Part shown: in pieces, positions 13,513-34,050 of the stretch
Position numbering within the stretch: the stretch's first letter is position 1
How the letters are laid out: every line of letters starts with the position of its first letter
From: Escherichia phage ESCO5
Sequence record: NC_047776.2
Reading direction: 5' to 3' (one strand)
Length of the DNA: 64,000 nucleotides
The notes under the pieces: model-generated
What the model saw: the letters and a program-made list of their open reading frames with translations, nothing else
Database searches by the model: none
What the model was told of the DNA's origin: nothing
Translations under genes and position numbers: made by a program

Positions 13513-13985
13513 TGGCAGATTTAACTACGATCAAAGTTTCTGATCTTACACAAACAACCTCTGTGTCTGATACAGATTTCTTTGTAACAGATCAGGCTGG
13601 AATAACAAAGAAGACTTCTTTGAAAGTGCTGTTGAGTGGTGCAGGGGTAACTAGAAACCGTTTAAATGCACGGGGAACAGTAACTAGCACCTTGGCATTA
13701 GATATTAGTTCAGCAGAATATTTTTCGGCAACCTTATCTTCTGCAACGTGCACAATTAGTTTTACTAATATTCCAGTAGCAACGAATGCAGTTTTAAACT
13801 TTACTTTAGCTTTGCGTCAAGGAAGTGGCGCAAATAAAGTCGTATGGCCTTCTTCTGTAAAATGGAGTTTTGGTCGTTCCCCAGTTTTGAGTTATCGTCA
13901 AGGTGCAACAGACACTTTTGAGTTTATCAGTTATGATAATGGAGCAACTTGGACAGGTAGCTTAGTTTTAGCAGGAGTTATTTAA
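13512..13985 (+). CDS. hypothetical baseplate/tail protein
   Basis: 157 aa; start overlaps upstream stop. Confidence 0.5.
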   Translation: MADLTTIKVSDLTQTTSVSDTDFFVTDQAGITKKTSLKVLLSGAGVTRNRLNARGTVTSTLALDISSAEYFSATLSSATCTISFTNIPVATNAVLNFTLALRQGSGANKVVWPSSVKWSFGRSPVLSYRQGATDTFEFISYDNGATWTGSLVLAGVI

Positions 13986-16861
13986 TGTCAAGAGTTAAGC
14001 ACAATATTGACAACACGTTTCAGTTGATTGAAGGGTTGGTTCAGTTTTTGGAAAGAAATACTGGGCTTACCATAGATCCTACGGTTCAGCATTACATTAT
14101 CAACCCACAAAACGTATTGGCGAACAACAGACACTTTATTAACTGGACAGCGCAGGAAGGGCAACCAAACGGTGACGCTACTACCGAAGGTCAATCTGTG
14201 CTTATCACTGGTTTTGCTTATGCATATTTGGCTACAGGGGATAAAAAATATCTTGAATCTGCCGAGAAGTATTGGCAAGCCTATATAGATCACTTCTTCG
14301 GGGGCCAACCTATTCCTGATCCTCCAGCTAAATATCGTCCCAACTGGATCATCAATGGTAAAGAACCACGTTTAGCACATTACCCTCTCACAGATGATGG
14401 GTATCCTACGCACGGCGGGTTCAAAGGTAGCATGATGACTTGGATTAACGGAAGGACTGTTATTCCTAAAGGTGCACCGCATTGGGGGGAATACTTAGAT
14501 AAAGCTTGGTTTGCTTTCAATGGCAATCTTGGTTGGAACTCCGTTAACGCAACAGTTTATGCAACTAACCCAGATGGTTCAACTAACTGGAAAGAATATG
14601 GAGATCAGTGGGATGTTGAATGGATTATAGATCGTCTAGGACGTAAAGTTGATTGGGATGGTAACATCTTATCTACAGGTCACAGCTTTGCAGAATATGG
14701 AACAGTGCAACTTAAAAATGCTTCTGTGAACGGTGACTATAAATTCAACTACGCTACATGCAACCCTGTAGAACACGGTGGATATCTGCTTAAGCGTAAT
14801 GAGATGTGGCATAACCGTCCTGTAAACGTTCCGGTAGAATTAGGTTATCAAGATAATGCTTCCGATGCGGAAACGTGGTGGTGTGATGCAAACTACTTGA
14901 TGTATCAGATCACAGGAGAGAGAAAATACTGGCTTTGCTGGCAATCTTCTTTATTGCTGTGTCAAGACTACTCAAACATTGATATGTTTGATAAATTCTT
15001 CCGTAGATCTACGACAGCAATAATTCCTTTTACAGATGGTATCTCTTATGATTACTCATACCCATCTACAGCAATACCTAAATACTCTCGTGACGAATTA
15101 GGATACACAGTAATTCGACAAGATGTTGCAGCCCAAACAACTCTAGAACAACAGGCAGTTTGGTTCAGAGTGGATCAGAATTCAAAACTGCGTATTGAGT
15201 TTCAAGGTGTAGATGATGCAGGGGAAGGTATTCTTTTCCGTCCAGAGTTAGAATTAAGCAAGACTAAGAGTGAAACAGACACAGTGACATATCGTTGTGG
15301 CTTACCTCTTGGTGCAGCTAATATGACTAAGATGGATATACCTTTATCTAGTTTTATGCGCACCGAACCTCCTGGAGGTGGTGTATATATTATTGCTGAA
15401 CCTAGAATCATTGTTGACTGGGGAAGCAATACTGTGATACAATATAAATATGCAACTGGTATTGCTGGGACAAATAGTGATCAGATAGTTTCTGCTAATA
15501 TGGATTCAGATGGTGGTTTTACTGTTGGGTTTTGGTTAACACCAACTAAAACAGCCAATTTAAAATCTATTACGTATCGTTCATACGCAGATGATTTTAA
15601 CATCACTATTACGGATTCCGCAGGTTGGAGATGGTGGGCCATGTTAGAAAAAACAAATTCTACATGGGTTACTAAAGCTTTAAGTCCTGCTGATTTCAAA
15701 TTAAGTACTTGGCAACCTAATCACGATGACACAGAGACAAAACCTTCGTCAATAAACCTGACTGCTATTGATCAGATCAATATTGCATTGGATTCTGAAC
15801 CTGCAAATGGCTTGACAGGGGCAATCGATTTTTATTGCGTTAACGATATCCCATCTTTGTATTCTTCAGCCACTGGTGATGACTACACAATGTATTTCAG
15901 GGTTACAGTTTCATCTGAAAATCCTTATACAGCAAAACTTGGAGATTGTACAATACTGGACTACAAACTTGACAGTTTGAATTATACTCCAGGAATCATT
16001 CCATTTTCTAATATTAGCGATCCTAACACAGCATTATATGACGGTTGGCGCGGTATTCCTTACCCAGGTTATCAATACCCATCCTTATATTGTTTTAAAG
16101 GGAGAGATATTGATTGGGTTCGTATGAACAACAGTATAGACTTTTTATATGATTCACAAATGTGGTTTTATAATAAGTTTGCCCCTGTGATGCCTGGGCC
16201 AATGGCACAAGCTTATGTTTGGGATCGTTGGGATGCTCATAAATACGGAAACAAGAATGAGTTCACAATGTATCATTGGAACGATAAAGCTTGGGATGGG
16301 TATGAAGCACGAGCATTCTTCTGTGCGTGTCATACAGTATACGAACTTAAACAACGAGGAGCAGAAGTTCCTGAAAAACTTTTAACAGTTTGTAAAAACT
16401 GGATCAACTATCTGAAGTGGTTCCAAGACAACAACGAAGGAAGAACACCAACAATATTTTATCCCAATGGAGAAGTGGCAGCGCCTGTAGATGACTTTAC
16501 AAGTCACATGTCTGCGCTCTTTATGGCAGGATGTGCTATAATGGGGATGGCTGGATATGATTCAGAAATTCCTAACATTAAAATAGTAGCAGACCGCTGT
16601 TTTGAACTTATTCAGGAAAATTATATTGTTCTTGGTCCTAATCATGTTATGAATGGCTGTTGGAGTTCCGCTCCTAGACCAGATAGTGATAACGGAGTCT
16701 TCTTTGGCTTCCACGCTGGAGAGTTGTTACGTGGTTTTGGGTTGTATGCTTTATACAAAAAACTTAATCCCCAAAATGCATTACCTGTTTTGGATTCGAG
16801 CAATATTCCTGCACTTACTGTTTTGACAATGGCAAACATTAGTGTGGACGTTACCGAGTAA
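13985..16861 (+). CDS. tail fibre / candidate polysaccharide depolymerase
   Basis: 958 aa; large Trp/Tyr-rich protein in fibre cluster; AGGAG RBS. Confidence 0.5.
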   Translation: MSRVKHNIDNTFQLIEGLVQFLERNTGLTIDPTVQHYIINPQNVLANNRHFINWTAQEGQPNGDATTEGQSVLITGFAYAYLATGDKKYLESAEKYWQAYIDHFFGGQPIPDPPAKYRPNWIINGKEPRLAHYPLTDDGYPTHGGFKGSMMTWINGRTVIPKGAPHWGEYLDKAWFAFNGNLGWNSVNATVYATNPDGSTNWKEYGDQWDVEWIIDRLGRKVDWDGNILSTGHSFAEYGTVQLKNASVNGDYKFNYATCNPVEHGGYLLKRNEMWHNRPVNVPVELGYQDNASDAETWWCDANYLMYQITGERKYWLCWQSSLLLCQDYSNIDMFDKFFRRSTTAIIPFTDGISYDYSYPSTAIPKYSRDELGYTVIRQDVAAQTTLEQQAVWFRVDQNSKLRIEFQGVDDAGEGILFRPELELSKTKSETDTVTYRCGLPLGAANMTKMDIPLSSFMRTEPPGGGVYIIAEPRIIVDWGSNTVIQYKYATGIAGTNSDQIVSANMDSDGGFTVGFWLTPTKTANLKSITYRSYADDFNITITDSAGWRWWAMLEKTNSTWVTKALSPADFKLSTWQPNHDDTETKPSSINLTAIDQINIALDSEPANGLTGAIDFYCVNDIPSLYSSATGDDYTMYFRVTVSSENPYTAKLGDCTILDYKLDSLNYTPGIIPFSNISDPNTALYDGWRGIPYPGYQYPSLYCFKGRDIDWVRMNNSIDFLYDSQMWFYNKFAPVMPGPMAQAYVWDRWDAHKYGNKNEFTMYHWNDKAWDGYEARAFFCACHTVYELKQRGAEVPEKLLTVCKNWINYLKWFQDNNEGRTPTIFYPNGEVAAPVDDFTSHMSALFMAGCAIMGMAGYDSEIPNIKIVADRCFELIQENYIVLGPNHVMNGCWSSAPRPDSDNGVFFGFHAGELLRGFGLYALYKKLNPQNALPVLDSSNIPALTVLTMANISVDVTE

Positions 16862-16869
16862 GGGGTAAA

Positions 16870-19023
16870 ATGAAACAAGCTATATTTACTGTCACGCGAG
16901 ACAAGAGAGTAAATGCGAGTTCATTTAACTACACGACTGTTGATGGAACAGCAGTCGCTGGTAGAGATTATATTGCAAAATCGGGAACACTTGTGTTCCC
17001 TGATGATGCTGATTCTGCTACCATTGTGGTTGAAGTATTTGAACGACCAAAGAACTCAATAGATCTTAACTTCTCCCTCCAAGTTTCAGGGATTAGTCAA
17101 AATAACATGATGGTTGAAACGACCATCAACTGTATTATAACTACGATTCAAGAAAATACTACTCCAATAACTTGGACTACAAAAGACGTTAAAATGTTCT
17201 CTCCTATGTATTGGACAATAGATTCTCAAGCAACGGAAAGTTGTTCTATTGTATCTCATGGAGACTCTTTTACTGCAAGATTTGTAAACAGAACAACAGC
17301 AGGTTTGGCAGGGGTTATCTGGAGCACAGTTGACAAATATGACCATAAAGGTGTTGGGTATTTACCCCACACAGATTTAAGTTCAGAGAAACTTTGGTTT
17401 AAAATGGAAGTTAGTCAAAACATGCCAGGTTTTAAAGAAGAACCTTTGGTGCCAACTTTGACTGTAACTCTCTTGGATAAAAGTGTCCACTATGTTAGTT
17501 TAGGATTTTATGCTTCAGATATTTCAGAAGATGGTAAAACAGCTACAATCAAACTAGATTTTGGTAATATCTTCTCTGGTCCTAATAATGATATTCCTTT
17601 GGACATGAGTGCTGTAGATAATATTTTCTTCTCTTTGATTACAGCAAGGTATGAAGAAATAGAAGAGATTGTACCTATTGATAGTCAAGAGGCTTGGTTT
17701 ACTTTCACTCTTCTTGAACCTACTTCTGGTTATAGTATGATGAAAGTCAGTAACCTTGTCCAGCCTGAACATGATATTCGCATGTGCACATCTTATGACG
17801 ATATGTATAACCTGACTCCAGAGAGAGTTATTTATAATACATATGCGCTAGGTTATCGTGGAATGATTAACCATTACAACGGAATGTCTCACTATTATGA
17901 GTTCTCATGGAACGGAACATCTTGGGCTTTAAATAGATCTGTCTTCCTGAATCCAGCTACAGAAGCTTGGCTAAATAGTTTCCATTCTATAGCGAACGAG
18001 AAGGGTTACACAATAATGAACTCTTTAAGTTTTGAGTTGATGAGCACAGTTTGTCCTGTAGAATGGGTCCAGCATGATTGGAACGATGCTCTTGCAGCAA
18101 CAGGGTATGAGCCTCCTAGTTACGTGTTGTCTCCAACTATTGACGAAGGTATGAAATATTTGCAAAATGTTATTAATAAAATAGCATCTATTTCGCAAGC
18201 TAATAATATTCCAGTTGTCATTCAAATTGGTGAGCCTTGGTGGTGGTATAATACAGCGAGTAAAATGCCTTGTATATACGATTACACTACTAAACTAGCA
18301 TTCAACACAGAAACAGGTTTATTTGCACAAGATGTAGGAACAATAGATAATTATAAAACAGGAACACCGTTTGACGAATACTATGCATTTTTGTCTCGTA
18401 AACTAGGATTAAGAGTTGCAAAGTTTGCAACAGATACTAGATTAGCCTATCCTGGAGCTAAAGTTACATTATTACCATTTGTGCCATCCATTTTAGGTAA
18501 CGGTATGATGGAGTTTGTTAACTTCCCTAAAGATTATTATATCCCAGAAAACTTCGACTTTTATTGTTCAGAGTGTTATGACTGGTTGTTGGAAGGTAAG
18601 ATGGAAAAATCTTTTGACGCTATCACAATACCTAATGAACAATTAGGTTTTAGTTATGATAAGATACATTATCTTGCAGGTTTTGTTCCAGATGCTACTC
18701 TTGCACCTTTGTATAGCTTTGATCCTGAATCAAACTACCGCACGTATCTTTGGAAAATGATTATAGGTAACATAGTGTTGAACGCCAATAAGTTCAATGG
18801 ACTTACACAATATATATGGGCCTATCCTCAAATAATGCACGATTCTATCACGGTAGTTAATTCTCAATCCCAAGTTTTCTATATGGGTAACGTGCCTTTG
18901 AACGTTTATTTACAGGATATCACTCTTAAACAGGTAAATGTTGAGATTGCCACCATAAGTGGAATTACATTAGCCACTAAATCTGGAGAAGATTTAGTAA
19001 CAACACAAAAATTTTATATATAG
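16870..19023 (+). CDS. tail fibre protein
   Basis: 717 aa ORF in fibre cluster. Confidence 0.5.
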   Translation: MKQAIFTVTRDKRVNASSFNYTTVDGTAVAGRDYIAKSGTLVFPDDADSATIVVEVFERPKNSIDLNFSLQVSGISQNNMMVETTINCIITTIQENTTPITWTTKDVKMFSPMYWTIDSQATESCSIVSHGDSFTARFVNRTTAGLAGVIWSTVDKYDHKGVGYLPHTDLSSEKLWFKMEVSQNMPGFKEEPLVPTLTVTLLDKSVHYVSLGFYASDISEDGKTATIKLDFGNIFSGPNNDIPLDMSAVDNIFFSLITARYEEIEEIVPIDSQEAWFTFTLLEPTSGYSMMKVSNLVQPEHDIRMCTSYDDMYNLTPERVIYNTYALGYRGMINHYNGMSHYYEFSWNGTSWALNRSVFLNPATEAWLNSFHSIANEKGYTIMNSLSFELMSTVCPVEWVQHDWNDALAATGYEPPSYVLSPTIDEGMKYLQNVINKIASISQANNIPVVIQIGEPWWWYNTASKMPCIYDYTTKLAFNTETGLFAQDVGTIDNYKTGTPFDEYYAFLSRKLGLRVAKFATDTRLAYPGAKVTLLPFVPSILGNGMMEFVNFPKDYYIPENFDFYCSECYDWLLEGKMEKSFDAITIPNEQLGFSYDKIHYLAGFVPDATLAPLYSFDPESNYRTYLWKMIIGNIVLNANKFNGLTQYIWAYPQIMHDSITVVNSQSQVFYMGNVPLNVYLQDITLKQVNVEIATISGITLATKSGEDLVTTQKFYI

Positions 19024-19031
19024 GAGTAAAA

Positions 19032-21797
19032 ATGTCAACTACAATTACTAATTTACCCGAAACATCAAAAGTTAATGGTTCTGATTACCTGGTTTTAGAC
19101 CAACCTGATAAGACTGTTAAAAGCACAGTTTCCAACTTTCTTACTGACACTGGGGTGGTTTTAGCCACCCAGTTAAAAGATATTTCTGGAGCTACCAAGT
19201 ACCCAGAACTTCAAATGTCACGCTGGAGAGATGAAGGTGATCCTAGAGGATGGGGAGCAGTAGGTGACGGAGCAACAGACGATACCAATGCCATAACACA
19301 GCTTCTTGCTGCTATGCCTGATGGATGGATTATTGATGGGCGTAATCTCACTTTCAAGGTTACAACACTACCAGATATAAGCAAGTTTAAAAACGCTGCT
19401 TTTGTTTACGAGCGTATTGTTGGACAACCCCTTACTTATGTATCTGAAGGTTTCTTCGATGGAAATCTGACAAAGATTACGGATACACCATTTTACAATG
19501 CTTGGACGCAAGATAAGACGTTTGTTTATGACAATGTTATATATGCACCATTTATGGCTGGCGAACGTCATGGTGTACAAAACCTCCATGTAGCGTGGGT
19601 TAAATCAGGAGATGATGGACAAACTTGGTCTATGCCAGAATGGTTAACTCCAATTCATCCTGATTATAATGCCTCTTCAGCAAACAAAGTTAACTATCAT
19701 TGTATGAGTATGGGCGTATGTGGTAATCGCCTATATGCAGTCATCGAAACCCGTTATTTATCTAACATGCGATTGAAGAAAGCAGAACTTTGGTCACGTC
19801 CAATGCCTTATTATAGAAGGCCAACTGGAGGTATAACAATTAGTTCTGGGTCTACTACGGCGACGATTGTTTTAGAAAAGCATGGTCTTAAAGTTGGAGA
19901 TGCTGTTAACTTTTCCAATTCAGGTGCAACTGGTGTATCTGGAAATATGACTGTTGCATCTGTAATTAACAAGGATACATTTACTGTTACATTAGCGAGT
20001 GCTGCCACATCTAATATAGATAATACAGGAACTACTTGGCATTTTGGAACACGTTTCTGGGATAGCCCTTGGGAAATTACAGAATTACCAGATGTTGCCT
20101 ATTCTACTAATGCAGACTTATGTGTTACAGAAACCCATAGTTTTACAGTTATAGATGATGATAATTACACTTTTGCTGTGGGTTATCACAATGGTGATGT
20201 TTCCCCAAGAAGATTAGGTATTTTGTATTTCAATAATGCTTACTCTGACCCAAGTTCTTTTACTCGTAGAACAATTAGTCAAGAATATGCTGACAATGCA
20301 GCAGAACCCTGCATTAAATATTATGATGGAATTTTATATTTAACTACTAGGGGTACTTCAACTTCTGCTGCTGGTTCTACATTAGCAATGAGTGCTGACC
20401 TTGGAGAAAACTGGAATTACTTAAGATTTCCTAACAACGTTCATCATACAAACCTACCATTTGCAAAAGTTGGTAACTACCTTTATATCTTTGGTACAGA
20501 ACGTTCATTTGGAGAATGGGAAGGAGAAGAACTAGATAATAGATATAAAGGTACGTATCCTCGAACGTTTATGTGCAAGATTAATGTATCTGCATGGCCT
20601 GCATCTTTATCCGATGTTCAATGGTTTAATATCACCGATCAGATGTATCAAGGGCATATTGTTAATTCTGCATGTGGTGTTGGTTCGGTATGTGTTAAAG
20701 ATGGTTGGTTATATTATATCTTTGGAGGCGAAGATTTCTTATCTCCTTGGTCTATTGGGGATAATAGTAAAAAATTATGGTACAAGCACGATGGTCATCC
20801 AGCCGATTTATATAGCTATAGACTAAAGATTACCGAACATGATTTTGTATCACGTGATTTCAAATATGGAGCTACGCCAAACCGTACATTGCCTGTATCT
20901 ATGGGTACAGATGGGGTAAGGCATGTCTCAGCCCCTGTAACTTTTGATAATGATGTGCAAGTACACTCTTTAACAGTTACTGGTCTTGAGCATGATGGGA
21001 CACAACAATCTGCCGTTAGAATAAAATTAGATGGTGATTATGGGGTTGTTGCAAAAAATGTCCCAATAAAAAATCCTTCTGAACAGCGACTAATCTTATG
21101 TGGAGGAGAAACTCCTTACGTTACTGATGGATCGCTATTACAACTATATGGTTCAAACCATACGTATCCAAACAGAGCAGTTTTATATGCCCCAGGAGGA
21201 GCATATACCCAAAATAATTTCATGCCATATTTAGATGGACAAGTTGCATTAGGTGGTGCATCTAACAGATGGTCAGAAGTGTACGCATCTACAGGAACCA
21301 TTAATACTTCAGATGGAACATTAAAAACTAAACCTACAGAGATTGAAGATATTTTACTGAAAGCGTGGGAAGATATTCATGTAATCTCTTATCAATGGCT
21401 GAGTGCTATCGCGGAGAAAGGAGATTCTGCGCGTATTCATTTTGGTGTTATAGCTCAAGATGTAAGAGATATTCTGATTAATTATGGTTTAATGGATGAA
21501 AATAGCACTGATTGTAAGTATGCTTTTCTGTGTTATGATGAATACCCTGCTATGTACGATAGTGTTGTTACGGGACAAAAAGAAATCCCTTTATTTGATG
21601 ATGAAGGGAATGTTGTAATTGATGAAGAAGGTAATCCAGTAACAATCGTAGAAGATGTTGTAGAAACTATCGAAATAATTCCAGCAGGATCGCGATGGGG
21701 TATCCGCGCTGACCAAATGTTTTTTATTGAGATGGCTTATCAACGTAAAAAGTTAAAAGCTCTTGAAGAAAGACTTGCAACCCTGGAAAGTAAATAA
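19032..21797 (+). CDS. tailspike with C-terminal intramolecular chaperone (peptidase S74-like) domain
   Basis: 921 aa; GAVGDGATDDTNAI pectate-lyase-type motif; C-terminal TSDGTLKTK...IHFGVIAQDV...LEERLATLESK resembles self-cleaving chaperone of endosialidases and L-shaped fibres. Confidence 0.6.
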   Translation: MSTTITNLPETSKVNGSDYLVLDQPDKTVKSTVSNFLTDTGVVLATQLKDISGATKYPELQMSRWRDEGDPRGWGAVGDGATDDTNAITQLLAAMPDGWIIDGRNLTFKVTTLPDISKFKNAAFVYERIVGQPLTYVSEGFFDGNLTKITDTPFYNAWTQDKTFVYDNVIYAPFMAGERHGVQNLHVAWVKSGDDGQTWSMPEWLTPIHPDYNASSANKVNYHCMSMGVCGNRLYAVIETRYLSNMRLKKAELWSRPMPYYRRPTGGITISSGSTTATIVLEKHGLKVGDAVNFSNSGATGVSGNMTVASVINKDTFTVTLASAATSNIDNTGTTWHFGTRFWDSPWEITELPDVAYSTNADLCVTETHSFTVIDDDNYTFAVGYHNGDVSPRRLGILYFNNAYSDPSSFTRRTISQEYADNAAEPCIKYYDGILYLTTRGTSTSAAGSTLAMSADLGENWNYLRFPNNVHHTNLPFAKVGNYLYIFGTERSFGEWEGEELDNRYKGTYPRTFMCKINVSAWPASLSDVQWFNITDQMYQGHIVNSACGVGSVCVKDGWLYYIFGGEDFLSPWSIGDNSKKLWYKHDGHPADLYSYRLKITEHDFVSRDFKYGATPNRTLPVSMGTDGVRHVSAPVTFDNDVQVHSLTVTGLEHDGTQQSAVRIKLDGDYGVVAKNVPIKNPSEQRLILCGGETPYVTDGSLLQLYGSNHTYPNRAVLYAPGGAYTQNNFMPYLDGQVALGGASNRWSEVYASTGTINTSDGTLKTKPTEIEDILLKAWEDIHVISYQWLSAIAEKGDSARIHFGVIAQDVRDILINYGLMDENSTDCKYAFLCYDEYPAMYDSVVTGQKEIPLFDDEGNVVIDEEGNPVTIVEDVVETIEIIPAGSRWGIRADQMFFIEMAYQRKKLKALEERLATLESK

Positions 21798-21825
21798 TAC
21801 CGCTTAGGCGGTATTTCAATCTTTA
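21797..21825 (+). terminator. rho-independent terminator
   Basis: ATACCGC-ttag-GCGGTAT followed by TTCAATCTTT. Confidence 0.6.
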
Positions 21826-21845
21826 TATCTCACTTAGAGGTACTC

Positions 21846-22109
21846 ATGGTTAAAGAGAAAAACGGTTTTAAAAAATTTATTCGCGGAATGTTCTGCACTT
21901 ACCCCGGCAACGGGGTAAGCTCTACGAAAGTCTGGAACGCTGTAGGCATGTCGGTTATGACAGGCATGTTTATCTTTTTAGGAATAGAAAAAGAAATTCC
22001 TGAATGGATGGGTTGGGCTTTTGTTTTCATGATAACCCCTTCTCGCCTCATGAAAAATCTTATTGATTTACGTTGGGGCAGATCACAATCTACCAAAGAG
22101 GATGACTAA
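21846..22109 (+). CDS. small membrane protein (two predicted TM segments)
   Basis: 87 aa; hydrophobic stretches AVGMSVMTGMFIFLGI and WMGWAFVFMITP; holin-like topology but located within the tail module. Confidence 0.45.
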   Translation: MVKEKNGFKKFIRGMFCTYPGNGVSSTKVWNAVGMSVMTGMFIFLGIEKEIPEWMGWAFVFMITPSRLMKNLIDLRWGRSQSTKEDD

Positions 22110-23596: not shown

Positions 23597-23598
23597 AA

Positions 23599-24228: not shown

Positions 24229-24237
24229 GGAGTTTAA

Positions 24238-25299: not shown

Positions 25300-25845
25300 A
25301 TGATATTTACAAACTTTAAAAAATATATTCCTGAAGACCCTGAACTAAAAGAATTGGTAGAAGCAGAGAACATTCTTTTTCTTCGTTGCGATCAAGGTTA
25401 CGATTGGTATGATTTACGTAGCACAGAATTCAATAACGATAAAATGAAAGTCGTTTTTGATGATCAAAATCGTATTGTGTTTTGGAATACTGATCCTACA
25501 CTACTTTGCCCTGAAGATCTTTCTATAGCACAAGTAGACTTTAACATAGATACTTTTGAGGATATTAGGAACAAGGTTCTGGATTTAGAAACCTTAACTC
25601 TTAAGAATAAAGAGTATTCCCGTGAAGAGTTGATGACACAAGCTAGTGCAAAAATTCGCTCTTTACAAGAAACAGCGGTAGCACTTATAACACCTTTACA
25701 GTATGCTAAAGATTTAGAAATGGCTACTGAAGACGAATTAGCTTATCTTAAAAATCTTCAAGTTTATGTAGTTAAACTAAATCGTGTTCCGCTTCAAAAA
25801 GACTATCCTTACGCTATAGATTGGCCTACATTACCGACAGAATAA
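25300..25845 (+). CDS. putative tail fibre assembly protein
   Basis: 181 aa; start overlaps fibre stop; position analogous to P2 gpG. Confidence 0.4.
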   Translation: MIFTNFKKYIPEDPELKELVEAENILFLRCDQGYDWYDLRSTEFNNDKMKVVFDDQNRIVFWNTDPTLLCPEDLSIAQVDFNIDTFEDIRNKVLDLETLTLKNKEYSREELMTQASAKIRSLQETAVALITPLQYAKDLEMATEDELAYLKNLQVYVVKLNRVPLQKDYPYAIDWPTLPTE

Positions 25846-25854
25846 GGGATCACT

Positions 25855-26190
25855 ATGGAATTTCAAGAAGCATGGGGACTTGCAAAGGATGCAATAATCC
25901 CTTTAATCGGAGTCATCTGGTTCTTTTTCAAACAAAAAATGGATAAATTCGGCTCTGATCTTGAGGAAATGGAGGAGAAAAGTCGAGAGCTAGAGAAGAA
26001 GTTGGTCTTTGTTGAATCAACTTATGCAACTAAAGCCGAACTTACCCAGATGCTAAATCAAATTAACTCTACATTAATGGCAAATAATAACACTCTTGAG
26101 CAAAAAATTGAAAAGATTATGGACCTCAAGAATGCGACTATCCAAATGATGCTAGATGACATAGTTAAACGTACACAGAATAAGGGGTAA
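25855..26190 (+). CDS. membrane-anchored coiled-coil protein
   Basis: 111 aa; N-terminal hydrophobic segment AIIPLIGVIWFFF followed by charged helical region. Confidence 0.45.
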   Translation: MEFQEAWGLAKDAIIPLIGVIWFFFKQKMDKFGSDLEEMEEKSRELEKKLVFVESTYATKAELTQMLNQINSTLMANNNTLEQKIEKIMDLKNATIQMMLDDIVKRTQNKG

Positions 26191-26193
26191 TTA

Positions 26194-29100
26194 ATGGCAA
26201 CATTCCCAACATATCCAGCAACGTCTCTCGAACAGGGCGTAGACCTGGTTATTTTCTCATCTAACCAACTCCATGATGTTATTAATGGAAGTGCTACAGA
26301 GAGTATTGAAACAGAATCAGGGTTGATACCAACCCTGAGAAAATCCCTTGTTGACAACTTTTTCTTTAAAAGCCCATTGGATTGGGCGCAAGGCACAAAC
26401 GAAACAGTTTTTAACCAACTACGTTATTTTCAGAATGGGGTATTGAGCGGTTATTATTATGCTCCTAATGCTACATTGGTAAACCCAATTCCTATGCAAG
26501 GGACTCCAGTAGGAGATAACAACTGGGTATTGTGGGGACTGAAGACAGAACAACTAGCAACAGAAGTCACCCCTTGGGTATATTCTGGTGCAACTGGTTA
26601 TGAAACAGTAATCAGTCCTCCCTACATCTTTGATAGTGCTATTGTTACAATCAATGGTGTTATTCAGGTTCTGGGAGAAGCTTTCCGCATAGAAGATAGT
26701 AAAATCATTTTATCTGAACCTTTGGGACATGATCCTGCAACAGGACTGCCAAACAAGCTTTTTGCCTATATTGGTAAAATCGTAGCTTCCGCAGATACAG
26801 ATCCTAACTTAGAAAACCGTCTTGTCAGTTTAGAAACAAAAACTGAAGAACTGACAGAAAACATGGATAAAGTACCTTTACAAACTATTGCTCGTAAATA
26901 CGGTTTGTTGGATGACGAAGTAGCTTACGCAACAGCGGGTCAATCATTAACAGGGATTAAAGCTCTGTATGATCCGGTAGCACAATCTTCCTACACATTG
27001 CCTCCTAACATCACAGGGACTTTAACATCTTTGTCTGTTTCTGGAGTAATGACTTATTCTGGCGGATCTGTAGATCTTTCTGCATTAGCTGTTGAACGTG
27101 GACAGTTTGTTCATTTGCCTACAAGCTTTGGTAATAATGTAACTCTGACAGCTAAAAATCAGACGATTGGGCGTGGCGCTGGTCGCTATCGTTGGGCGGG
27201 AAGTTTACCAAAAAGTATTTTAGCTTCTGATACATTGGAAACAAGTGGTGGATTAGGTCCAAATGCATGGGTTCTAACTAATACAGAAGGACTGTTAACC
27301 CCTCGTGGTGGAACATACAACGATTTATTCGATGTTGTCCGCTTATCAGAATTTGCTAACAATACAACTACCTATACCACACCAGAAGCAGCTTTCCAGG
27401 CGGCACTGTTAGCAGCAAAAGCTTCGAAAAGTAAGATTCTCGACGCTTACGGTTGTGATATGACTTTCACGACAAGCTCTTTTGATATTCAAGATATCAC
27501 TTTGCGTGGGGGTGTGTTCCGTGGTCAACGCGATTATCGTGTGCAAAATGCTACAGTAGAAGGCACAACTTTCCGTAACTCTCGTGTTATGTATTGGGGT
27601 GGTGCTGTGCGCATGTTCGATTGTTTGTGGGACGGTGCTCCTCGCGCAGGTCAAGTTGGTAGCTTGGTATTCCAAGGAAACCCAATATCAGGTACTTTTG
27701 AAATTGATAATTGTACTTTTAAAAACGGGTTATATGGCATCCTTCAACAAGGAACAGGGGAACCAGTAACACGCGGTGTCTTCCGTAACCTTACCTTCAT
27801 GGACATGCAAGGTGATGCAATAGAACTGAACGTCATCAATAAACATTATGATGATGGTTGTGTGATTGAGAATATTTACCTGTCTAATATTGATGGGACT
27901 AACGCTCCTATTCCTCTGTCCAACTGGGGTATCGGTATTGGTGTGGCTGGTAAAGGACCATATGGTTACGGAATTCCTGATGATCAATATTGCAAGAATA
28001 TTACAATTCGTAACGTTTTTGCAAAACGTTGTCGTCAGATTGTCCACGTAGAAGTTGGTCGTAATATTTCTATCGAAAACATTCATGGCGATCCAGATCA
28101 AACTGTATCTGTTGGGACAGGTTTGGCAACTGGCGCAGTTGTAATGTATGGAAGTAAAGATTTTACGATTGATGGTGTTTACGGAGAGCCTAAAACAGAC
28201 GGTAGCACACTTGCAAGTAATATCCGTATGATTTATTTGGAGTGGGGAACTAACGCAGTTCTGGATGAAGAGGGCAATCCGGTAGTTCCGGCACAGGGCA
28301 GACCTTCAAACCCATGCTTTAACTATTCTGTTCGTAACATTCACACCAAAACTGGGCGTGTTTTTGCAGGAGTTTCCGCTGGGCCAGGTTATGAAAACAG
28401 AGTCAGCTTTGAGAATATCCATTGTGCTGCGTTGCAGTTGTTCGGTGTAGCTTCTTGGCTTTCAATGTCTAACATCACCTGTAATATCTTTGATTGTGTT
28501 GGTCAACCTGAATCTGGTCCAGGGACATTTTATGATGGATTCTTCCGTAGAGAAAAATCTGTTCTTGAGATGGTTAACGTAAACTGTTACCCAGATGGCA
28601 AGACTATGGTTACTGGTCGCCCACAGTGGAGCCGTTGCCGTTACTCTGATATTCATCGTGTCAACTGTAATGTTGAAGCTAATATGTATACCAATATCGC
28701 AGGTGGTATTGGAGCTATTGTAGGGACAACTGGCAAAGTTTATTACTTAGAGCCTAACCCTAGCCGAAACATTGATGGGATGCATTTCCCAACAGGGAAG
28801 GAGTTTGACAAAGGGGATATGATAGTCAAAGCGGATAATACGTTCTTCCTTGTAACAACAAGTGGGGCATACATTCCAGATATCCCAGCTTTCGGTATTC
28901 GAGCTACACAAGCAGGAGATACCTTCCTGACACAGAACTTGACTCCTAATGGGACAGCAACAAACGCTTCTTGGTTGTATCACTATCCTCTGTCAGCAGG
29001 AACACGTATCCGTATTCCTGGTGCTGGTGTAGGTGGAGCAGATTTGGACACAGTTATTACTCGTGCACCTTATCAAGATAATGATACGTGGACTAACCCA

Positions 29101-29247
29101 GTTAAAATAGACATTGCAGATCCAATTGTAACGCCTACGAGTGCTGGAGTTAGAATCAAAACCATACCTAACGATTCTAGTAATGTTTCTGTAGGTAATA
29201 CTGCGGTTATTCGCCCAACACCAGTGGTAGATGTGCCAACAACCTAA
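26194..29247 (+). CDS. tailspike, right-handed parallel beta-helix (pectin-lyase fold)
   Basis: 1017 aa; repeated NxxVxNxxF / GxxI beta-helix rungs (e.g. VFRNLTFMDMQGDAIELNVINKHYDDGCVIENIYLSNIDGTN). Confidence 0.6.
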   Translation: MATFPTYPATSLEQGVDLVIFSSNQLHDVINGSATESIETESGLIPTLRKSLVDNFFFKSPLDWAQGTNETVFNQLRYFQNGVLSGYYYAPNATLVNPIPMQGTPVGDNNWVLWGLKTEQLATEVTPWVYSGATGYETVISPPYIFDSAIVTINGVIQVLGEAFRIEDSKIILSEPLGHDPATGLPNKLFAYIGKIVASADTDPNLENRLVSLETKTEELTENMDKVPLQTIARKYGLLDDEVAYATAGQSLTGIKALYDPVAQSSYTLPPNITGTLTSLSVSGVMTYSGGSVDLSALAVERGQFVHLPTSFGNNVTLTAKNQTIGRGAGRYRWAGSLPKSILASDTLETSGGLGPNAWVLTNTEGLLTPRGGTYNDLFDVVRLSEFANNTTTYTTPEAAFQAALLAAKASKSKILDAYGCDMTFTTSSFDIQDITLRGGVFRGQRDYRVQNATVEGTTFRNSRVMYWGGAVRMFDCLWDGAPRAGQVGSLVFQGNPISGTFEIDNCTFKNGLYGILQQGTGEPVTRGVFRNLTFMDMQGDAIELNVINKHYDDGCVIENIYLSNIDGTNAPIPLSNWGIGIGVAGKGPYGYGIPDDQYCKNITIRNVFAKRCRQIVHVEVGRNISIENIHGDPDQTVSVGTGLATGAVVMYGSKDFTIDGVYGEPKTDGSTLASNIRMIYLEWGTNAVLDEEGNPVVPAQGRPSNPCFNYSVRNIHTKTGRVFAGVSAGPGYENRVSFENIHCAALQLFGVASWLSMSNITCNIFDCVGQPESGPGTFYDGFFRREKSVLEMVNVNCYPDGKTMVTGRPQWSRCRYSDIHRVNCNVEANMYTNIAGGIGAIVGTTGKVYYLEPNPSRNIDGMHFPTGKEFDKGDMIVKADNTFFLVTTSGAYIPDIPAFGIRATQAGDTFLTQNLTPNGTATNASWLYHYPLSAGTRIRIPGAGVGGADLDTVITRAPYQDNDTWTNPVKIDIADPIVTPTSAGVRIKTIPNDSSNVSVGNTAVIRPTPVVDVPTT

Positions 29248-29255
29248 TGGAAATA

Positions 29256-29282
29256 GAGAGGGGGATTCCCCCTCTTCTTCCA
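29256..29282 (+). terminator. stem-loop / terminator
   Basis: GAGAGGGGG-att-CCCCCTCTC followed by TTCTTCC. Confidence 0.5.
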
Positions 29283-29311
29283 ATAGAATGGTCTAATAAT
29301 AGGAGAGATAA

Positions 29312-31336
29312 ATGAATTTAACAAGACCTAATAGTGCGATAGCCGATCTAGTAGAAGCTACTTATCGAAAACGTCGCAGTTTTGAGGCAGGTTTTACATT
29401 ACGTAATTCCCGTGAAGTTTTGCTGTTAGCGGCAGAAGGGAATTATTACCAATGGAAAGGAACTTTTCCTAAAGTAGTTCCAGCAAACTCTACGCCAGCC
29501 ACCACAGGTGGTATTTCTTCCCTTGCATGGCAAAGTGTTGGGACCGCTGATGATATAGCAATTATCAATGCCAAGTTTACGGCAATGCAGCAACAGATTG
29601 ATGATCTGTCGGAAACAATACCTGAAGCTGGTAAATCGGCTTATCAGATCGCACTTGATAATGGTTTTGTTGGAACAGAAGCACAATGGCTTGCTTCTTT
29701 GAAAGGGGATACTGGTGCTCAACTTAATATTAAAGGATCATTAGCAAGCACTAGTGAACTACCATCTACAGGTAACGTAGCAGGTGATGGTTATATTGTA
29801 GGAGATGTAATCTACGCTTGGGATGGGGCTGTTTGGAAACTTATCTCTTCTCTTGGGCCAGAAGGGAAATCAGCTTACGAGGTATGGTTAGCAGATGGTA
29901 ATACAGGATCTGTTTATGACTTTCTTGCCTCTATAAAAGGTGATAAAGGAGACGTTGGTCCTACAGGTCCACAGGGTGCACCTGGTGTCAACGCTAATGG
30001 TTTTGATTACCGTGGAGATTTGCCTTCTACAAGTAACTTACCACAACCTAACTCTGAAAACGTAAGCCAAGCTTATTCTATTAATGGTAATCTTTATGTC
30101 TCTAATGGGACAGCTTGGGTCAACATGGGTAATATTGTTGGTCCTCAAGGTCCACAAGGTGAGGCAGGTAAAGACGGTCTAGATGGAACAGATGGAGACG
30201 AAGGGAAATCTGCATATCAAAGTTGGCTGGATGCTGGTAATGAAGGGACAGAAGTAGATTTTATTGCCTCACTTAAAGGTCCAAAAGGAGACAAGGGTGA
30301 TCAAGGAGAGCGAGGTCCACAAGGTGAACTAGGTCCACAAGGACCAGTGGGTGCAACAGGATCAGGTTTAGAGATTATCGGGGTTCTGAACAGCGAAGCT
30401 GAACTTCCTCCTACTGGAGAAGTAGGTGATGCATATAAAATTAATAATGATTTGTATGTTTGGGTTCAAGATGCTACAGAATGGATGAATGTAGGCAGTC
30501 TTGGAGGAACATCAATTACAGCTAAAGGTCATGTTCCGAACAGTGAAGCTCTCCCTGTTTATAATAACTACGGTGATGCCTATTTAACTGAAGACACTAG
30601 TAATCTTTACATCTATACCTACGATCAAGACACCAATTCCGCATCTTTTGTTGACATGGGAAGTATTAAAGGCGACAAAGGTGAAAAAGGGGATAAAGGA
30701 GATAAGGGTGATCCTGGAACAAACGGAACCAACGGTACTGATGGGACCAACGGTAAGGACGGCGCACAGTGGTTTGTAGCAACAACTAATCCAGTCACAG
30801 GAGACGGTGTTATCAATGATTACGCCTTCAATACTACCACTGGAGCAGTATTTAAGAAAACAGATTCTTCTACGTGGACACTTATAGGAACTCTTCCTAG
30901 TATACCAGAAGCCCCTCAAGACGGCTTGACGTATGGTCGTTCTGATGGAAACTGGATCGAAATATCAGGATCAGATCCTACGGAAGCTATAACACCAACT
31001 AGAGTTACAGCAGGTTTCATGGAACTTGAAACAACTACTGCCAACTCTGGAGCATCTTGGACTCCTTCTGGAACTTCCAATATGTATGTTGTTACAGTAA
31101 CTGACGCTCTGACAGTTGGAGCATGGCCTGGTGTCACTGGCTCTACAAAACCTAAAGCGTTTTCAGCAATGATTTATTTGATTCAAGATACAACGGGACA
31201 CACGGTTACACTAGATGCGTCTTATGGAGCACTAAATGATACAGAAATAGCAACTACTGCTAACGCAGTAACAATTTTGCAATTAACGTATCCTGGTGTG
31301 GGTGATATCGTGGACATGGTTGTTGTAACACGATAA
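29312..31336 (+). CDS. tail fibre with collagen-like Gly-X-Y repeats
   Basis: 674 aa; runs such as GPQGPQGEAGKDGLDGTDGDEG and KGDKGEKGDKGDKGDPGTNGTNGTDGTNGKDG; three copies of GKSAY...(W)L(A)S(L)KG(D)KGD repeat. Confidence 0.7.
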   Translation: MNLTRPNSAIADLVEATYRKRRSFEAGFTLRNSREVLLLAAEGNYYQWKGTFPKVVPANSTPATTGGISSLAWQSVGTADDIAIINAKFTAMQQQIDDLSETIPEAGKSAYQIALDNGFVGTEAQWLASLKGDTGAQLNIKGSLASTSELPSTGNVAGDGYIVGDVIYAWDGAVWKLISSLGPEGKSAYEVWLADGNTGSVYDFLASIKGDKGDVGPTGPQGAPGVNANGFDYRGDLPSTSNLPQPNSENVSQAYSINGNLYVSNGTAWVNMGNIVGPQGPQGEAGKDGLDGTDGDEGKSAYQSWLDAGNEGTEVDFIASLKGPKGDKGDQGERGPQGELGPQGPVGATGSGLEIIGVLNSEAELPPTGEVGDAYKINNDLYVWVQDATEWMNVGSLGGTSITAKGHVPNSEALPVYNNYGDAYLTEDTSNLYIYTYDQDTNSASFVDMGSIKGDKGEKGDKGDKGDPGTNGTNGTDGTNGKDGAQWFVATTNPVTGDGVINDYAFNTTTGAVFKKTDSSTWTLIGTLPSIPEAPQDGLTYGRSDGNWIEISGSDPTEAITPTRVTAGFMELETTTANSGASWTPSGTSNMYVVTVTDALTVGAWPGVTGSTKPKAFSAMIYLIQDTTGHTVTLDASYGALNDTEIATTANAVTILQLTYPGVGDIVDMVVVTR

Positions 31337-31339
31337 CAG

Positions 31340-31366
31340 AAGCCCCGAAAGGGGCTTTCTTTTTAT
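31340..31366 (+). terminator. rho-independent terminator
   Basis: AAGCCCC-gaaa-GGGGCTT followed by TCTTTTTAT. Confidence 0.65.
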
Positions 31367-31377
31367 GGAGGGTTTAA

Positions 31378-34050
31378 ATGTTTCCAATTCCAATATTTAC
31401 TATTATGACCAGCACTGGTGTCGTTCCTCTGCCAGCAGGTATTGTTAAAAAAGTAATCACTCTAGATTACCCAGATAATGCTGGCAATTCTAATAGCAGT
31501 TTAGCAATTTTGCTTAATGATGGTAGATTGTTTACTCAAGGCGCAAACCTTTTTGGTGAGATTGCAGATGGAACTCGTAGTGCACGATTCAATAATTTCC
31601 ACTTAGCTTCTACTGTAGTAGCGGATGTGTTTACCGCAGATCGTTGTTTTGTTATTAAAACTAACAGTGGGGGATGGCAATATTCAGGATTGACAGCAGG
31701 GTTGGTAGGATCTATAGCAGCAGGTGGTACGGATGCATGTGTAACTACTTGGACCAGCTTTCCATCTGTAATAACAGGGACTATCTCTTTAGCCAATCTT
31801 AAAGAGGTTAAGGGAGGATATAACAACACTCTCTGGTTGATGAATAGTGGTGTTCTTTATGGATCAGGTCAAAACACAGTAGGCAGTTTAGGTGCAAGTA
31901 CTACTAACGAAGTTTCTACTCCTCGTCAGATAACAAGTGCAGCAGTTGCTTTTGATGCAGGTTACAACCAATGCTCTTATGTCAACAATGTGGGAACCTT
32001 GCGTGTTTGTGGGGCTAGTAAAGGTTTAGCAGGTAATAATAACACAACAACAGCTTTTGTCAATGCCAAGATATCCGCTACTGAAACAGTGTATGTCAAA
32101 GATTACATCAATACAGTTTCCCAGACAATAGTTGTAGGAGATACCTCCGGTGGCACGGGTACAGTAAACTACTTATATGTTAGATCTAATACAGAAACAA
32201 CCTACACTAAACTGGACACCTTTGCAGCAGGTTTCTCAACATGGAAATTTCCACCAAGCCGCCACTCTTTTTTCGTTGGGATCAATAATTCCTTGTGGGC
32301 TATTGGTAAGAACTACACTGCAAACTTAGGTTTGGGGTATGATTCTGCGAGCGGAGATCCACTCCAAGTGGGAAAACCAGTTAAACCTGAAGGAGTGGGT
32401 TCCTGGGATATAAACAAGCTCACAAGCGTTCATACACTGAATATGGATGTTACTAACCAATTAGGTTATCAAGGAACCTTTTTCGTTTATAATGGAGATA
32501 TGTATTATTCAGGTATTTGGAAAGATGGGAAAGCCTCGTATCTGTTCAATAGTGGTCTAAACTATAATAAATTCACACCAATAGCAAGCTCCGTGATTAC
32601 AGGGGATGTTCTGGCAACTGGCTTAACTACAGATTCTTTAGGAATTTGTATTGTAGGTGGAACTAAACAGTTGACACATTCTGTTAGCCCAGAAGGAGGT
32701 AAACTTTTCAATATTAAATACACTTCTTCTGCCCCTGCAAACATGACAATATCATCTACTGGTTTAATGACTTTCCATGCAGAAGGTGGTTTTGATGCAG
32801 GTATGACAGCCTTAAACGCTGAAGGAACAATTTTATCAGATACCTCTGGAGGATATGCTTCAACATTGAGTGTTTACACCCCTAGCTTATCTGCGATGGA
32901 TGTAGGAACAACACAAACAATGGTAGCAGAAATAACACCAACAGGAGCAGCAAGCTTACCTGATATGGTTGTTGAGTATACAACTACAGATCCTAATGTT
33001 GCTACAGTAGATCCTACAACTGGTGTAATAACTGGTGTTGGTGATGGTGGTTGTAGGATTGGTTGCACAGCTACGTATCAAGGTGTTGTTACCGCTTCTG
33101 ATAGTTCTTATTTAACGGTGAATGCTGTTGCGGGAAAGGAGTTAGCTCCATCTCCGAGTAGTAGTTTAACGGTTCTAAACGGATATTTCAACCACTCGGC
33201 AGATGGGGCAATTACGTTCCCAACTTTATCGGGTACTGTTACACCAGCTAACTTTGTAGTTAAGGTGGATGACGTTGTAGTTCCTTCAAGTAAAGTAATA
33301 TTTAGAAACAAAGCTTTCTCTACAGTGGATAGTTATCCAGCAGGAGAATATAGACTGGCTATTGAATTTGCAAGTGCTTCAGTAGTTAATAGTGTGGAAG
33401 TGTCTATGGAAGCAAACCCAAGTCTTTTAGAACTTTGGGGCGGTAATAGAATCAGTTATTCTACAAGCCCAGCCTCACAATTCTTAAAAGGTTGTGCTAA
33501 CTTAAGACGAATAACTTCTGATTGTTTTAGTAACACATCTTACACCGGAACATCTATAAGCGGTATCTTCTCTGGCTGCACAAGTTTGACAGCTATCCCT
33601 GAAGGATTATTCAGTGATGCTTTATTTCCTTCAATGACAACAATGTCAAGCACGTTTGAAGGTTGTACATCTTTAACATCTATTCCTTCAGATTTATTTA
33701 AGAATCTGTCAAAAGTTACAAGATATTCTTACACCTTTAAAGATTGCACCTCTCTTGCAGAAGTTCCAGCAGGAATGTTTGATAATATTCCAACGAAAGT
33801 GACCTCTTTAACAGCTACATTCCAAGGTTGTTTAGGACTTACAGATTTTAATAAGATCTTTAATGACAACCCAGGGTTAACTGTTTGTGGTAAACGTGGA
33901 GCATTATCTTCTTTCTTTAGTGGATGCACAAATCTTACAGGAACAGGAACAACATTAACAAATACATTAGGCGGAGTAGCTAATAGTTACCTATTCAGGT
34001 ATTGCACAAAACTTTCTGATTATAACAACATTCCTTCCGGTTATAAATAA
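31378..34050 (+). CDS. tail fibre with Ig-like (Big_2-type) and BspA-type leucine-rich repeat C-terminal domain
   Basis: 890 aa; repeated FxGCTSLTxIPxxLF units (CANLRRITSDCF, GCTSLTAIPEGLF, GCTSLTSIPSDLF, DCTSLAEVPAGMF, GCLGLTDF); TTDPNVATVDPTTGVITGVGDGG Ig-like segment. Confidence 0.6.
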   Translation: MFPIPIFTIMTSTGVVPLPAGIVKKVITLDYPDNAGNSNSSLAILLNDGRLFTQGANLFGEIADGTRSARFNNFHLASTVVADVFTADRCFVIKTNSGGWQYSGLTAGLVGSIAAGGTDACVTTWTSFPSVITGTISLANLKEVKGGYNNTLWLMNSGVLYGSGQNTVGSLGASTTNEVSTPRQITSAAVAFDAGYNQCSYVNNVGTLRVCGASKGLAGNNNTTTAFVNAKISATETVYVKDYINTVSQTIVVGDTSGGTGTVNYLYVRSNTETTYTKLDTFAAGFSTWKFPPSRHSFFVGINNSLWAIGKNYTANLGLGYDSASGDPLQVGKPVKPEGVGSWDINKLTSVHTLNMDVTNQLGYQGTFFVYNGDMYYSGIWKDGKASYLFNSGLNYNKFTPIASSVITGDVLATGLTTDSLGICIVGGTKQLTHSVSPEGGKLFNIKYTSSAPANMTISSTGLMTFHAEGGFDAGMTALNAEGTILSDTSGGYASTLSVYTPSLSAMDVGTTQTMVAEITPTGAASLPDMVVEYTTTDPNVATVDPTTGVITGVGDGGCRIGCTATYQGVVTASDSSYLTVNAVAGKELAPSPSSSLTVLNGYFNHSADGAITFPTLSGTVTPANFVVKVDDVVVPSSKVIFRNKAFSTVDSYPAGEYRLAIEFASASVVNSVEVSMEANPSLLELWGGNRISYSTSPASQFLKGCANLRRITSDCFSNTSYTGTSISGIFSGCTSLTAIPEGLFSDALFPSMTTMSSTFEGCTSLTSIPSDLFKNLSKVTRYSYTFKDCTSLAEVPAGMFDNIPTKVTSLTATFQGCLGLTDFNKIFNDNPGLTVCGKRGALSSFFSGCTNLTGTGTTLTNTLGGVANSYLFRYCTKLSDYNNIPSGYK

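Follow-up and report, generated by a model that had tools for sequence, protein, structure and literature searches.

The 64,000-nucleotide stretch of Escherichia phage ESCO5 analysed here (NC_047776.2; hereafter the window) contains, between positions 13985 and 34050, seven long open reading frames (ORFs) that an initial annotation, made from the sequence alone, had taken for seven long fibre or tailspike genes forming a multivalent adsorption apparatus with a possibly broad host range. Our analysis indicates that the region is very probably a baseplate-periphery and adsorption module, orthologous to the gp140-gp152 region of phage phi92, which would build a few branched appendages on each baseplate wedge rather than seven fibres. 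Only four of the seven products are classical fibres or spikes: an endosialidase, a colanidase-like spike, a collagen-like fibre and a short fibre. The idea of a multivalent apparatus stands insofar as the fibres are accompanied, as published for phi92, by several glycan-active or glycan-binding proteins, namely the endosialidase, the colanidase-like spike, an N4 gp64-like TIM barrel and a glycosidase-like barrel, while the count of seven fibres and seven specificities is too high. The adsorption-module reading is therefore right in kind, overstated in number and in host-range reach, and already published for phage REC and its relatives.

All seven ORFs (958, 717, 921, 353, 1017, 674 and 890 aa) were recovered in the ORF listing with exactly the sizes and positions first given (Table 1). 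Because stop codons are frequent at a GC content of ~39%, with one expected about every 15 codons, these ORFs are not products of chance; the probability of a 353-codon ORF is estimated at P ~1e-10. Neighbouring genes of the block are tightly spaced, with gaps of -1 to 64 nt, and a GGAG-like ribosome-binding site lies 5' of every start. The interleaving of fibre-type genes with baseplate J and I genes was likewise correctly seen, the 495-aa ORF being a Baseplate_J protein and the 209-aa ORF a DUF2612 protein in the gp146 position.

Comparison of the annotated phi92 locus with the window ORFs shows a collinear gene order from gp140 to gp152, with fibre genes on either side of the wedge genes gp145 and gp146 in both phages and orthologues 60-97% identical. 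The two loci also differ. Phi92 has a 202-aa immunoglobulin (Ig)-like protein, gp152, in place of the 890-aa propeller-Ig-leucine-rich-repeat protein, and its gp153 is without counterpart here (pairwise comparison of gp153 with the 890-aa protein gave no match). The colanidase-type spike, unlike gp150, has a tailspike protein (TSP)-like insert of ~210 aa and a strongly diverged catalytic part, and the tip of the short fibre is not that of gp147.

Among closer relatives, the 20-kb region is 100% identical to that of Escherichia phage vB_EcoM_REC (OM386667; Phapecoctavirus, Stephanstirmvirinae), a laboratory recombinant of ESCO5 and ESCO37 that inherited the locus from ESCO5 (REC paper). By megablast, ~58 other records are 96-98% nucleotide-identical across the locus, as seen for phAPEC8, nepoznato, ZCKP1 and Mt1B1_P17, which belong with ESCO5 to Phapecoctavirus. 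These close relatives lose megablast coverage at two places only, one being the slot of the endosialidase and the other the last third of the 890-aa protein, and the coverage classes of 100%, 95%, 86-87% and 82-84% track whether these two segments are present. In Mt1B1_P17 the endosialidase slot has no occupant, and in ZCKP1 and iGC_PHA_EC001 it is filled by another spike, of 743-745 aa; in phAPEC8 it is the C-terminal third of the 890-aa homologue that differs.

The protein in the first of these slots, described initially as an S74-chaperone tailspike, is more precisely a complete endosialidase. Five Pfam domains (End_N_terminal, End_beta_propel, End_beta_barrel, End_tail_spike and Peptidase_S74; E 1e-212 to 1.7e-12) make up an N-terminal extension, a beta-propeller with an inserted beta-barrel, a stalk and a C-terminal S74 chaperone, and the protein matches PDB entries 4hiz (aa 75-759, E = 0) and 3gw6 (aa 663-921). 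Because it is 97% identical to the biochemically characterised phi92 enzyme, we infer that it cleaves alpha-2,8 and alpha-2,9 polysialic acid (K1/K92). Identity to phi92 at the DNA level, measured in 100-nt windows, rises to 94-100% over a cassette of ~3 kb that runs from the 3' end of the 717-aa gene through the endosialidase gene and a hairpin into the first ~50 nt of the next gene. The flanks show 60-85%, with 60-78% over most of the 717-aa gene and 72-82% downstream of the cassette. As the two genera's genomes (REC and phi92) are only ~46% identical overall (REC paper), this pattern marks the endosialidase cassette as one that moved recently between the two genera. Apart from the main cassette, a 200-nt patch in the 717-aa gene (18464-18663) is 94-95% identical to phi92 within flanks of 75-78%; it may reflect either another short tract of recombination or strong constraint on this segment of the TIM barrel.

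Another way to view the slot is through the junction at which its spikes begin. The first 54 residues of the endosialidase are 94% identical in the otherwise unrelated 743-aa spike of iGC_PHA_EC001, and this anchor is found at an identity of at least 80% in 78 records. The neighbouring 717-aa protein ends in a 34-aa tail found at an identity of at least 90% in 79 phage records. Mt1B1_P17, which has no spike gene, encodes a 717-aa homologue that lacks exactly these last 34 aa, and iGC_PHA_EC001 keeps the tail despite its different spike. In every record whose coordinates were compared, the tail lies 11 nt upstream of the spike start. Taken together, tail and anchor are consistent with a plug-and-socket arrangement. 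The alternative 743-745-aa slot spike carries a Tail_spike_N domain. Phages with this spike have an extra ORF of ~100 aa after it, annotated as a tail spike or tail protein (L006 7889-8194; L005 8441-8749). Pfam gave no match for this ORF, possibly a remnant or a chaperone.

A similar anchor may be present directly upstream of the seven ORFs. The first 60 aa of the 157-aa protein encoded there align to the endosialidase N-terminus with a Smith-Waterman score of 61 (z = 6.7), a score reached by 0 of 2000 shuffles, and its counterpart by position, gp140, is a fibre candidate in the cryo-EM paper on phi92 (PMC13450770). The 157-aa protein may thus be an eighth, minimal plug-in appendage. An all-against-all BLASTP search of 18 module proteins for common anchors connected only the 1017-aa and 674-aa proteins, and these weakly, through Tail_spike_N.

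The two proteins encoded ahead of the spike were listed initially as large unknowns. They are real, and both can now be assigned, neither of them as fibre-like. For the 958-aa protein, no sequence match was obtained in Pfam (to E = 1), NCBIfam or PDB, and fold comparison alone was informative. Its AlphaFold2 (AF2) model, built from a 40-sequence alignment (pLDDT 86.7, pTM 0.81), contains the six-hairpin barrel fold and shows no elongated shaft, whether beta-helix, triple beta-helix, coiled coil or collagen, so that as modelled the protein is globular and glycosidase-like and not a fibre. Against the folds of glycoside hydrolase (GH) families GH8, GH76, GH105 and GH88 its sequence identity is 9-14%, and here ~500 residues of beta-sandwich inserts are extra. 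Residues D64, D294 and E296 are invariant in 40 homologues with identities down to 42%. The motif A292-S-D-A-E resembles what we take to be the GH8 signature, a lead rather than a test. Phage records with full-length homologues number 532 and span myo-, jumbo- and podophages of many hosts; homologues are also found in bacterial chromosomes. Such conservation is that of a core module rather than of a variable receptor binder. Contigs of megabase scale from E. coli and Enterobacter carry homologues of 940 aa and ~53% identity (P0017-P0042), and the module is therefore present in prophages or other chromosomal elements as well.

For the 717-aa protein the assignment comes from sequence families (PF03160; PF23844, E 2.7e-16; PF23845, E 1.3e-79) and from PDB matches to N4 gp64 (9lc0_M, E 4.6e-30) and N4 gp65 (9lc0_I, E 1.2e-12). 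N4 gp64 and part of gp65 are homologues of its NCTSP_N domain and TIM barrel; in N4 the two proteins form a six-fold sheath of six heterodimers round the tail tube and act as receptor binder, not as a trimeric fibre. N4 is a podovirus, whereas here the module belongs to the baseplate locus of a myovirus, carries a fused Calx-beta domain and has a tailspike gene coming after it. An N4-style tail sheath made of the 717-aa protein was rejected as unlikely in this context, the phage being a myovirus with its own contractile sheath gene upstream (phi92 gp130 position). N4-like phages and the phi92-like group both depend on the wecB/nfrB glycan NGR. The BASEL study described a deacetylase-like domain common to Vequintavirinae and phi92-like phages together with wecB dependence, and later genetics identified the glycan concerned as NGR, not enterobacterial common antigen (ECA); we accordingly dropped ECA as common primary receptor. 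On E. coli K-12 these phages are effectively monovalent, dependent on wecB/nfrB-dependent NGR. We propose that the 717-aa protein would serve as an adaptor or arm combined with an NGR-glycan module.

The three remaining classical appendages were all correctly typed at the outset. The beta-helix tailspike of 1017 aa matches the phi92 gp150 crystal structure 6e0v (E 2e-78) as well as 4oj5, 5w6f, 5w6h and 4qnl, and in part the NCBIfam family WcaM. It consists of an anchor (aa 1-215), N-terminal domains like those of CBA120 TSPs and G7C gp63.1 (227-367) and a catalytic-type beta-helix (426-1000). The collagen-like fibre of 674 aa contains four G-X-Y runs, starting near aa 209, 276, 322 and 453, between repeated modules of ~30 aa, and its tip (aa 558-674) matches the phiTE tail fibre 9cuy_g. 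The short coiled fibre of 353 aa is of the gp147 and phiTE short-tail-fibre type and has a Caudo_TAP chaperone gene next to it; its N-terminal 267 aa are conserved, its tip (aa 286-353) is of another type than that of phi92, and its C-terminus matches the phiTE short tail fibre 9cuy_c with E 6e-23.

Comparison with the branched tailspike complexes of CBA120 (TSP1-4) and G7C (gp63.1/gp66) points to the same principle, that of several enzymes on one branched stalk. The Tail_spike_N (TSP1/gp66) domain is common to these systems, the alternative slot spike, the 1017-aa spike (PF18668 at aa 302-361) and the 674-aa fibre (aa 12-77), and the N-terminal domains of CBA120 TSP1, TSP3 and TSP4 and of G7C gp63.1 align to residues 227-367 of the 1017-aa spike. 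The XD branching domains of CBA120 TSP2 and TSP4 had no match in the PDB search, in which no dedicated profile was used. To our knowledge, the Ackermannviridae and G7C complexes are without proximal parts of the glycosidase-like 958-aa type or the N4-like 717-aa type.

The last of the seven, the 890-aa protein, had been called a leucine-rich repeat (LRR)/Ig-like fibre. The Ig-like part is clear (Big_2) and about seven repeats are visible at the C-terminus, although LRR family matches remain below curated cut-offs (LRR_5 17.1 bits against 27.7; PARCEL 21.9 bits against 30; DUF285 weak), and an N-terminal RCC1-like propeller had been missed. In the AF2 model (pLDDT 83.8, pTM 0.62) the chain runs from an RCC1-like seven-bladed propeller (~20-400), which Foldseek matches to UVR8/RCC1 at E 5e-15, through two Ig-like domains (410-585) and a beta-sandwich (~598-690) to putative BspA-type LRRs (~700-890). 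The last consist of ~seven FxGCxxLxxIP-type units with one short strand per ~27 residues. In this monomer model there is no trimeric shaft, with neither coiled coil nor beta-helix. The protein is 98% identical to its phAPEC8 homologue up to aa 584 and unrelated beyond, so that a C-terminal third (33130-34047) is exchanged between close relatives, a pattern repeated in metagenomic homologues. Most of the phage contigs that carry homologues are ~140-157 kb long.

Cryo-EM of phi92 (2026; PMC13450770) provides the frame in which these parts can be placed. Each wedge bears three fibre types, of which I and III attach to gp145: an L-shaped fibre I tipped by the endosialidase, a fibre II that arises at the base of fibre I and to which no protein is assigned, and fibre III, which is gp147. 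The same paper makes no mention of gp141 and gp142. We envisage that the ESCO5 module would likewise form a few branched appendages per wedge. An L-shaped fibre I would lead from the wedge through the 958-aa and 717-aa proteins to the exchangeable spike, which would plug in by its 54-aa N-terminus beside the 34-aa tail of the 717-aa protein. The 353-aa fibre would be fibre III and make the final contact with the cell surface, and the 1017-aa and 674-aa proteins would be candidates for fibre II. During adsorption, in an order taken from the literature, the enzymes would strip or walk along capsule and exopolysaccharide (polysialic acid, a colanic-acid-like polymer and NGR). The short fibre would thereby reach the lipopolysaccharide core, where its rearrangement would trigger sheath contraction.

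The proximal placement of the 958-aa and 717-aa proteins in the endosialidase-bearing appendage is suggested by natural fusions, by gene adjacency beside the wedge genes and by the unit-like junction between the 717-aa protein and its spike. One fusion (P0099) joins a gp141-like module to NCTSP_N and a TIM barrel, and another (P0088) joins the baseplate protein P2 gpI to a gp141-like module. Taken a step further, the gp141/gp142 pair could be the missing proximal arm of fibre I, non-fibrous, enzyme-like, NGR-aimed and wedge-anchored, and a universal socket for plug-bearing spikes, an idea that we put forward tentatively and rate as rather less than an even chance.

Several points weigh against this reconstruction. 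The path from the 958-aa through the 717-aa protein to the spike is a proposal drawn from gene order, fusions in distant relatives and co-inheritance, and the co-occurrence of tail and anchor, only 11 nt apart, could be explained by a single recombination unit. The AF2 models are of monomers, with which oligomers are compatible, and any catalysis by the 958-aa and 717-aa proteins is putative. The catalytic part of the 1017-aa spike is 33% identical to phi92 gp150, so its substrate may differ, and models of gp150 and gp151 did not fit the fibre II density of phi92 according to the authors of that study (PMC13450770). Virion composition and structure are deduced for REC from its genes and from related phages. 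A literature search found no Phapecoctavirus virion proteome. Indirect support for a place in the virion nevertheless comes from mass spectrometry of rV5 virions, which identified members of the homologous module among tail, fibre and baseplate proteins, although gp27-gp38 yielded no entry in the rV5 supplementary tables. Virions of the related phage W70, also analysed by mass spectrometry, held RCC1-type proteins of PHROG 4219, a family matched by the N-terminus of the 890-aa protein at E 5.5e-34, along with fibres of two families, PHROG 4549 and 12846, in which the 1017-aa and 674-aa proteins and the 353-aa protein are also represented.

If all seven genes encoded independent long fibres or tailspikes, each with its own receptor or depolymerase specificity, the phage should have a very broad host range. 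The naming of the genes favours this, since records and papers term all seven tail fibre or tail proteins, and at least four carry enzyme-like or glycan-binding domains. We nevertheless hold it to be highly improbable. The 958-aa, 717-aa and 890-aa proteins are not fibre-like or spike-like in their domains or in the two models made; structure prediction, which the initial annotation had suggested as a check, gave globular or bead-like AF2 models without a trimeric shaft for the 958-aa and 890-aa proteins, and for the 717-aa protein the relatives with solved structures build a sheath of heterodimers. Three fibre types are displayed by phi92, and conservation of 96-98% among close relatives in five of the seven genes argues against seven specificities. 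The host range is in fact moderate, with REC and four sister Phapecoctavirus phages lysing 14-37% of the avian pathogenic E. coli (APEC) strains tested.

Within a module of few appendages, the 958-aa and 717-aa proteins might still be arm or baseplate scaffolds that have lost catalysis and use their folds as building blocks or lectins, giving fewer activities than the domains imply. Such a role would fit the description of N4 gp64/gp65, the nearest solved relatives of the 717-aa protein, as sheath subunits and receptor binder rather than enzymes, the failure of the 958-aa protein to match any curated glycosidase family by sequence, and the strong conservation of both proteins across hosts. Loss of catalysis is however opposed by the invariant D64, D294 and E296, by the GH8-like look of the motif at A292 and by publications in which the 717-aa homologue figures as a deacetylase-type module linked with NGR dependence, which leaves the scaffold view possible and, on balance, doubtful. 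Somewhat less probable again is a place for the 890-aa protein outside the adsorption apparatus, either as a tail or head decoration (compare the Ig domains on lambda gpV and T4 Hoc) or as a non-virion protein. Its sole phi92 match is the Ig-like gp152, annotated 'lambda protein V like'; its gene comes after a terminator-like hairpin; its model has no trimerisation element; and Justusliebigvirus phages infect well without it. Yet the gene stands at the end of the tail module, the exchange of its LRR domain among near-identical phages is the pattern expected of a receptor-binding tip, RCC1-type proteins of PHROG 4219 are virion components in W70, and PHROG 11922 bears the label 'tail protein'. 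A baseplate-periphery module with few branched appendages keeps our preference.

The main finding is already known: the genome is published, and several papers have read the locus through the phi92 "multivalent adsorption apparatus", described by Schwarzer et al. (2012). The REC paper itself identifies REC_00244 as an endosialidase 96% identical to that of phi92, ties it to a wider host range and discusses the phi92 apparatus. Another paper speaks of the locus as a "nanosized Swiss army knife"; a further one names its genes TfpL, TfpM1, TfpM2 and TfpS1-3. The new points, all computational, are modest: a fold for the 958-aa protein, the limits of the cassette together with the conserved junction, the variability of the LRR end in the 890-aa protein and the idea of a gp141/gp142 arm. 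To label every large ORF of the locus 'tail fibre' misleads, and fewer specificities should be counted. For host-range engineering of Phapecoctavirus therapy phages, the natural handles are the spike slot that follows the 717-aa gene and the C-terminal domain in the 890-aa protein, and gp141 and gp142 suggest themselves as candidates for the densities of fibres left unassigned in phi92 cryo-EM. The 958-aa module occurs in more than 500 phage genomes of several morphotypes and, if the arm idea is true, would be a widespread and largely unrecognised baseplate-attached enzyme.

Table 1. Features of the adsorption locus in the window, with the basis of each assignment and the comparison with phi92
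Feature	Position	Strand	Basis or remark	Comparison with phi92
157-aa small fibre-like protein	13512-13985	+	Directly upstream of the seven ORFs	gp140 homologue by position
958-aa globular (alpha/alpha)6-barrel glycoside-hydrolase-like module with beta-sandwich inserts (predicted)	13985-16861	+	AF2 model, fold comparison	gp141 homologue, 83% identical, full length
717-aa protein: Calx-beta aa 4-82, NCTSP_N 107-292, N4 gp64-like TIM barrel 299-658	16870-19023	+	Pfam, PDB	gp142 homologue, 79% identical
34-aa C-terminal tail of 717-aa protein	18919-19020	+	Present only where a spike gene comes next	
Mosaic cassette, ~3 kb	18964-21900 (approximate)	+	717-aa gene 3' end, endosialidase gene, hairpin, first ~50 nt of next gene	Common to phi92
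921-aa endosialidase (EndoN) tailspike, C-terminal S74 self-cleaving chaperone	19032-21797	+	Five Pfam domains	gp143 (EndoN) homologue, 97% identical
Conserved N-terminal anchor, endosialidase aa 1-54	19032-19193	+	Sequence comparison	
87-aa small hydrophobic protein	21846-22109	+	Annotated membrane protein in phi92 and phAPEC8	gp144 homologue
495-aa baseplate wedge protein (gpJ type)	22109-23596	+	Baseplate_J E 1.4e-8, synteny	gp145 homologue
209-aa baseplate wedge protein (gpI position)	23599-24228	+	DUF2612, synteny	gp146 homologue
353-aa short tail fibre (Mu/P2-type)	24238-25299	+	Pairwise identity, PDB, PHROG tail-fibre families	gp147 ('fibre III') homologue, 75% identical over aa 1-267 only; tip differs
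181-aa tail fibre assembly chaperone for 353-aa fibre	25300-25845	+	Caudo_TAP E 5e-13	gp148 position
111-aa protein: one N-terminal hydrophobic segment, coiled-coil-like rest	25855-26190	+	Annotated lipoprotein	gp149 homologue
1017-aa beta-helix tailspike, colanidase type	26194-29247	+	PDB	gp150 homologue; aa 1-215 74%, aa 455-1002 33% identical; ~210-aa insert extra here
674-aa collagen-like tail fibre	29312-31336	+	Pfam Tail_spike_N, Collagen	gp151 homologue, 60% identical
GC-rich hairpin and T run, terminator-/attenuator-like	31339-31358	+	Directly 3' of 674-aa gene	
890-aa modular protein	31378-34050	+	Pfam RCC1-like, Big_2; AF2 model	gp152 (202 aa): aa 411-584 only, 67% identical
Two-way terminator-like hairpin	34053-34074	.	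Closes late structural block, meets minus-strand replication genes	

Several smaller features accompany the main genes. The fibre module also contains the 87-aa and 111-aa proteins, both small and with hydrophobic segments, and the translation of the annotated lipoprotein (111 aa) has no evident lipobox. GC-rich hairpins follow the endosialidase gene (21796-21815), the 1017-aa gene (29255-29275) and the 674-aa and 890-aa genes (Table 1), with plus-strand T runs at the latter two; these four could be attenuators or marks of cassette boundaries. The phAPEC8 RefSeq record has a putative terminator annotated at the place equivalent to the hairpin after the 674-aa gene. No tRNA genes were found in the window, and a scan for sigma-70 promoters did not rise above background (66 sites against 55 +/- 7 expected). 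The GC skew switches sign at ~34 kb, where the plus-strand structural block meets minus-strand genes for single-stranded DNA-binding protein, DNA polymerase and primase/helicase. Among the database records, several that bear the label 'Campylobacter phage' prove near-identical, where they match, to phages of E. coli, for example B15 to Phapecoctavirus and D# to rV5-like phages; mislabelling or contamination of the deposited data is the probable source of these labels.

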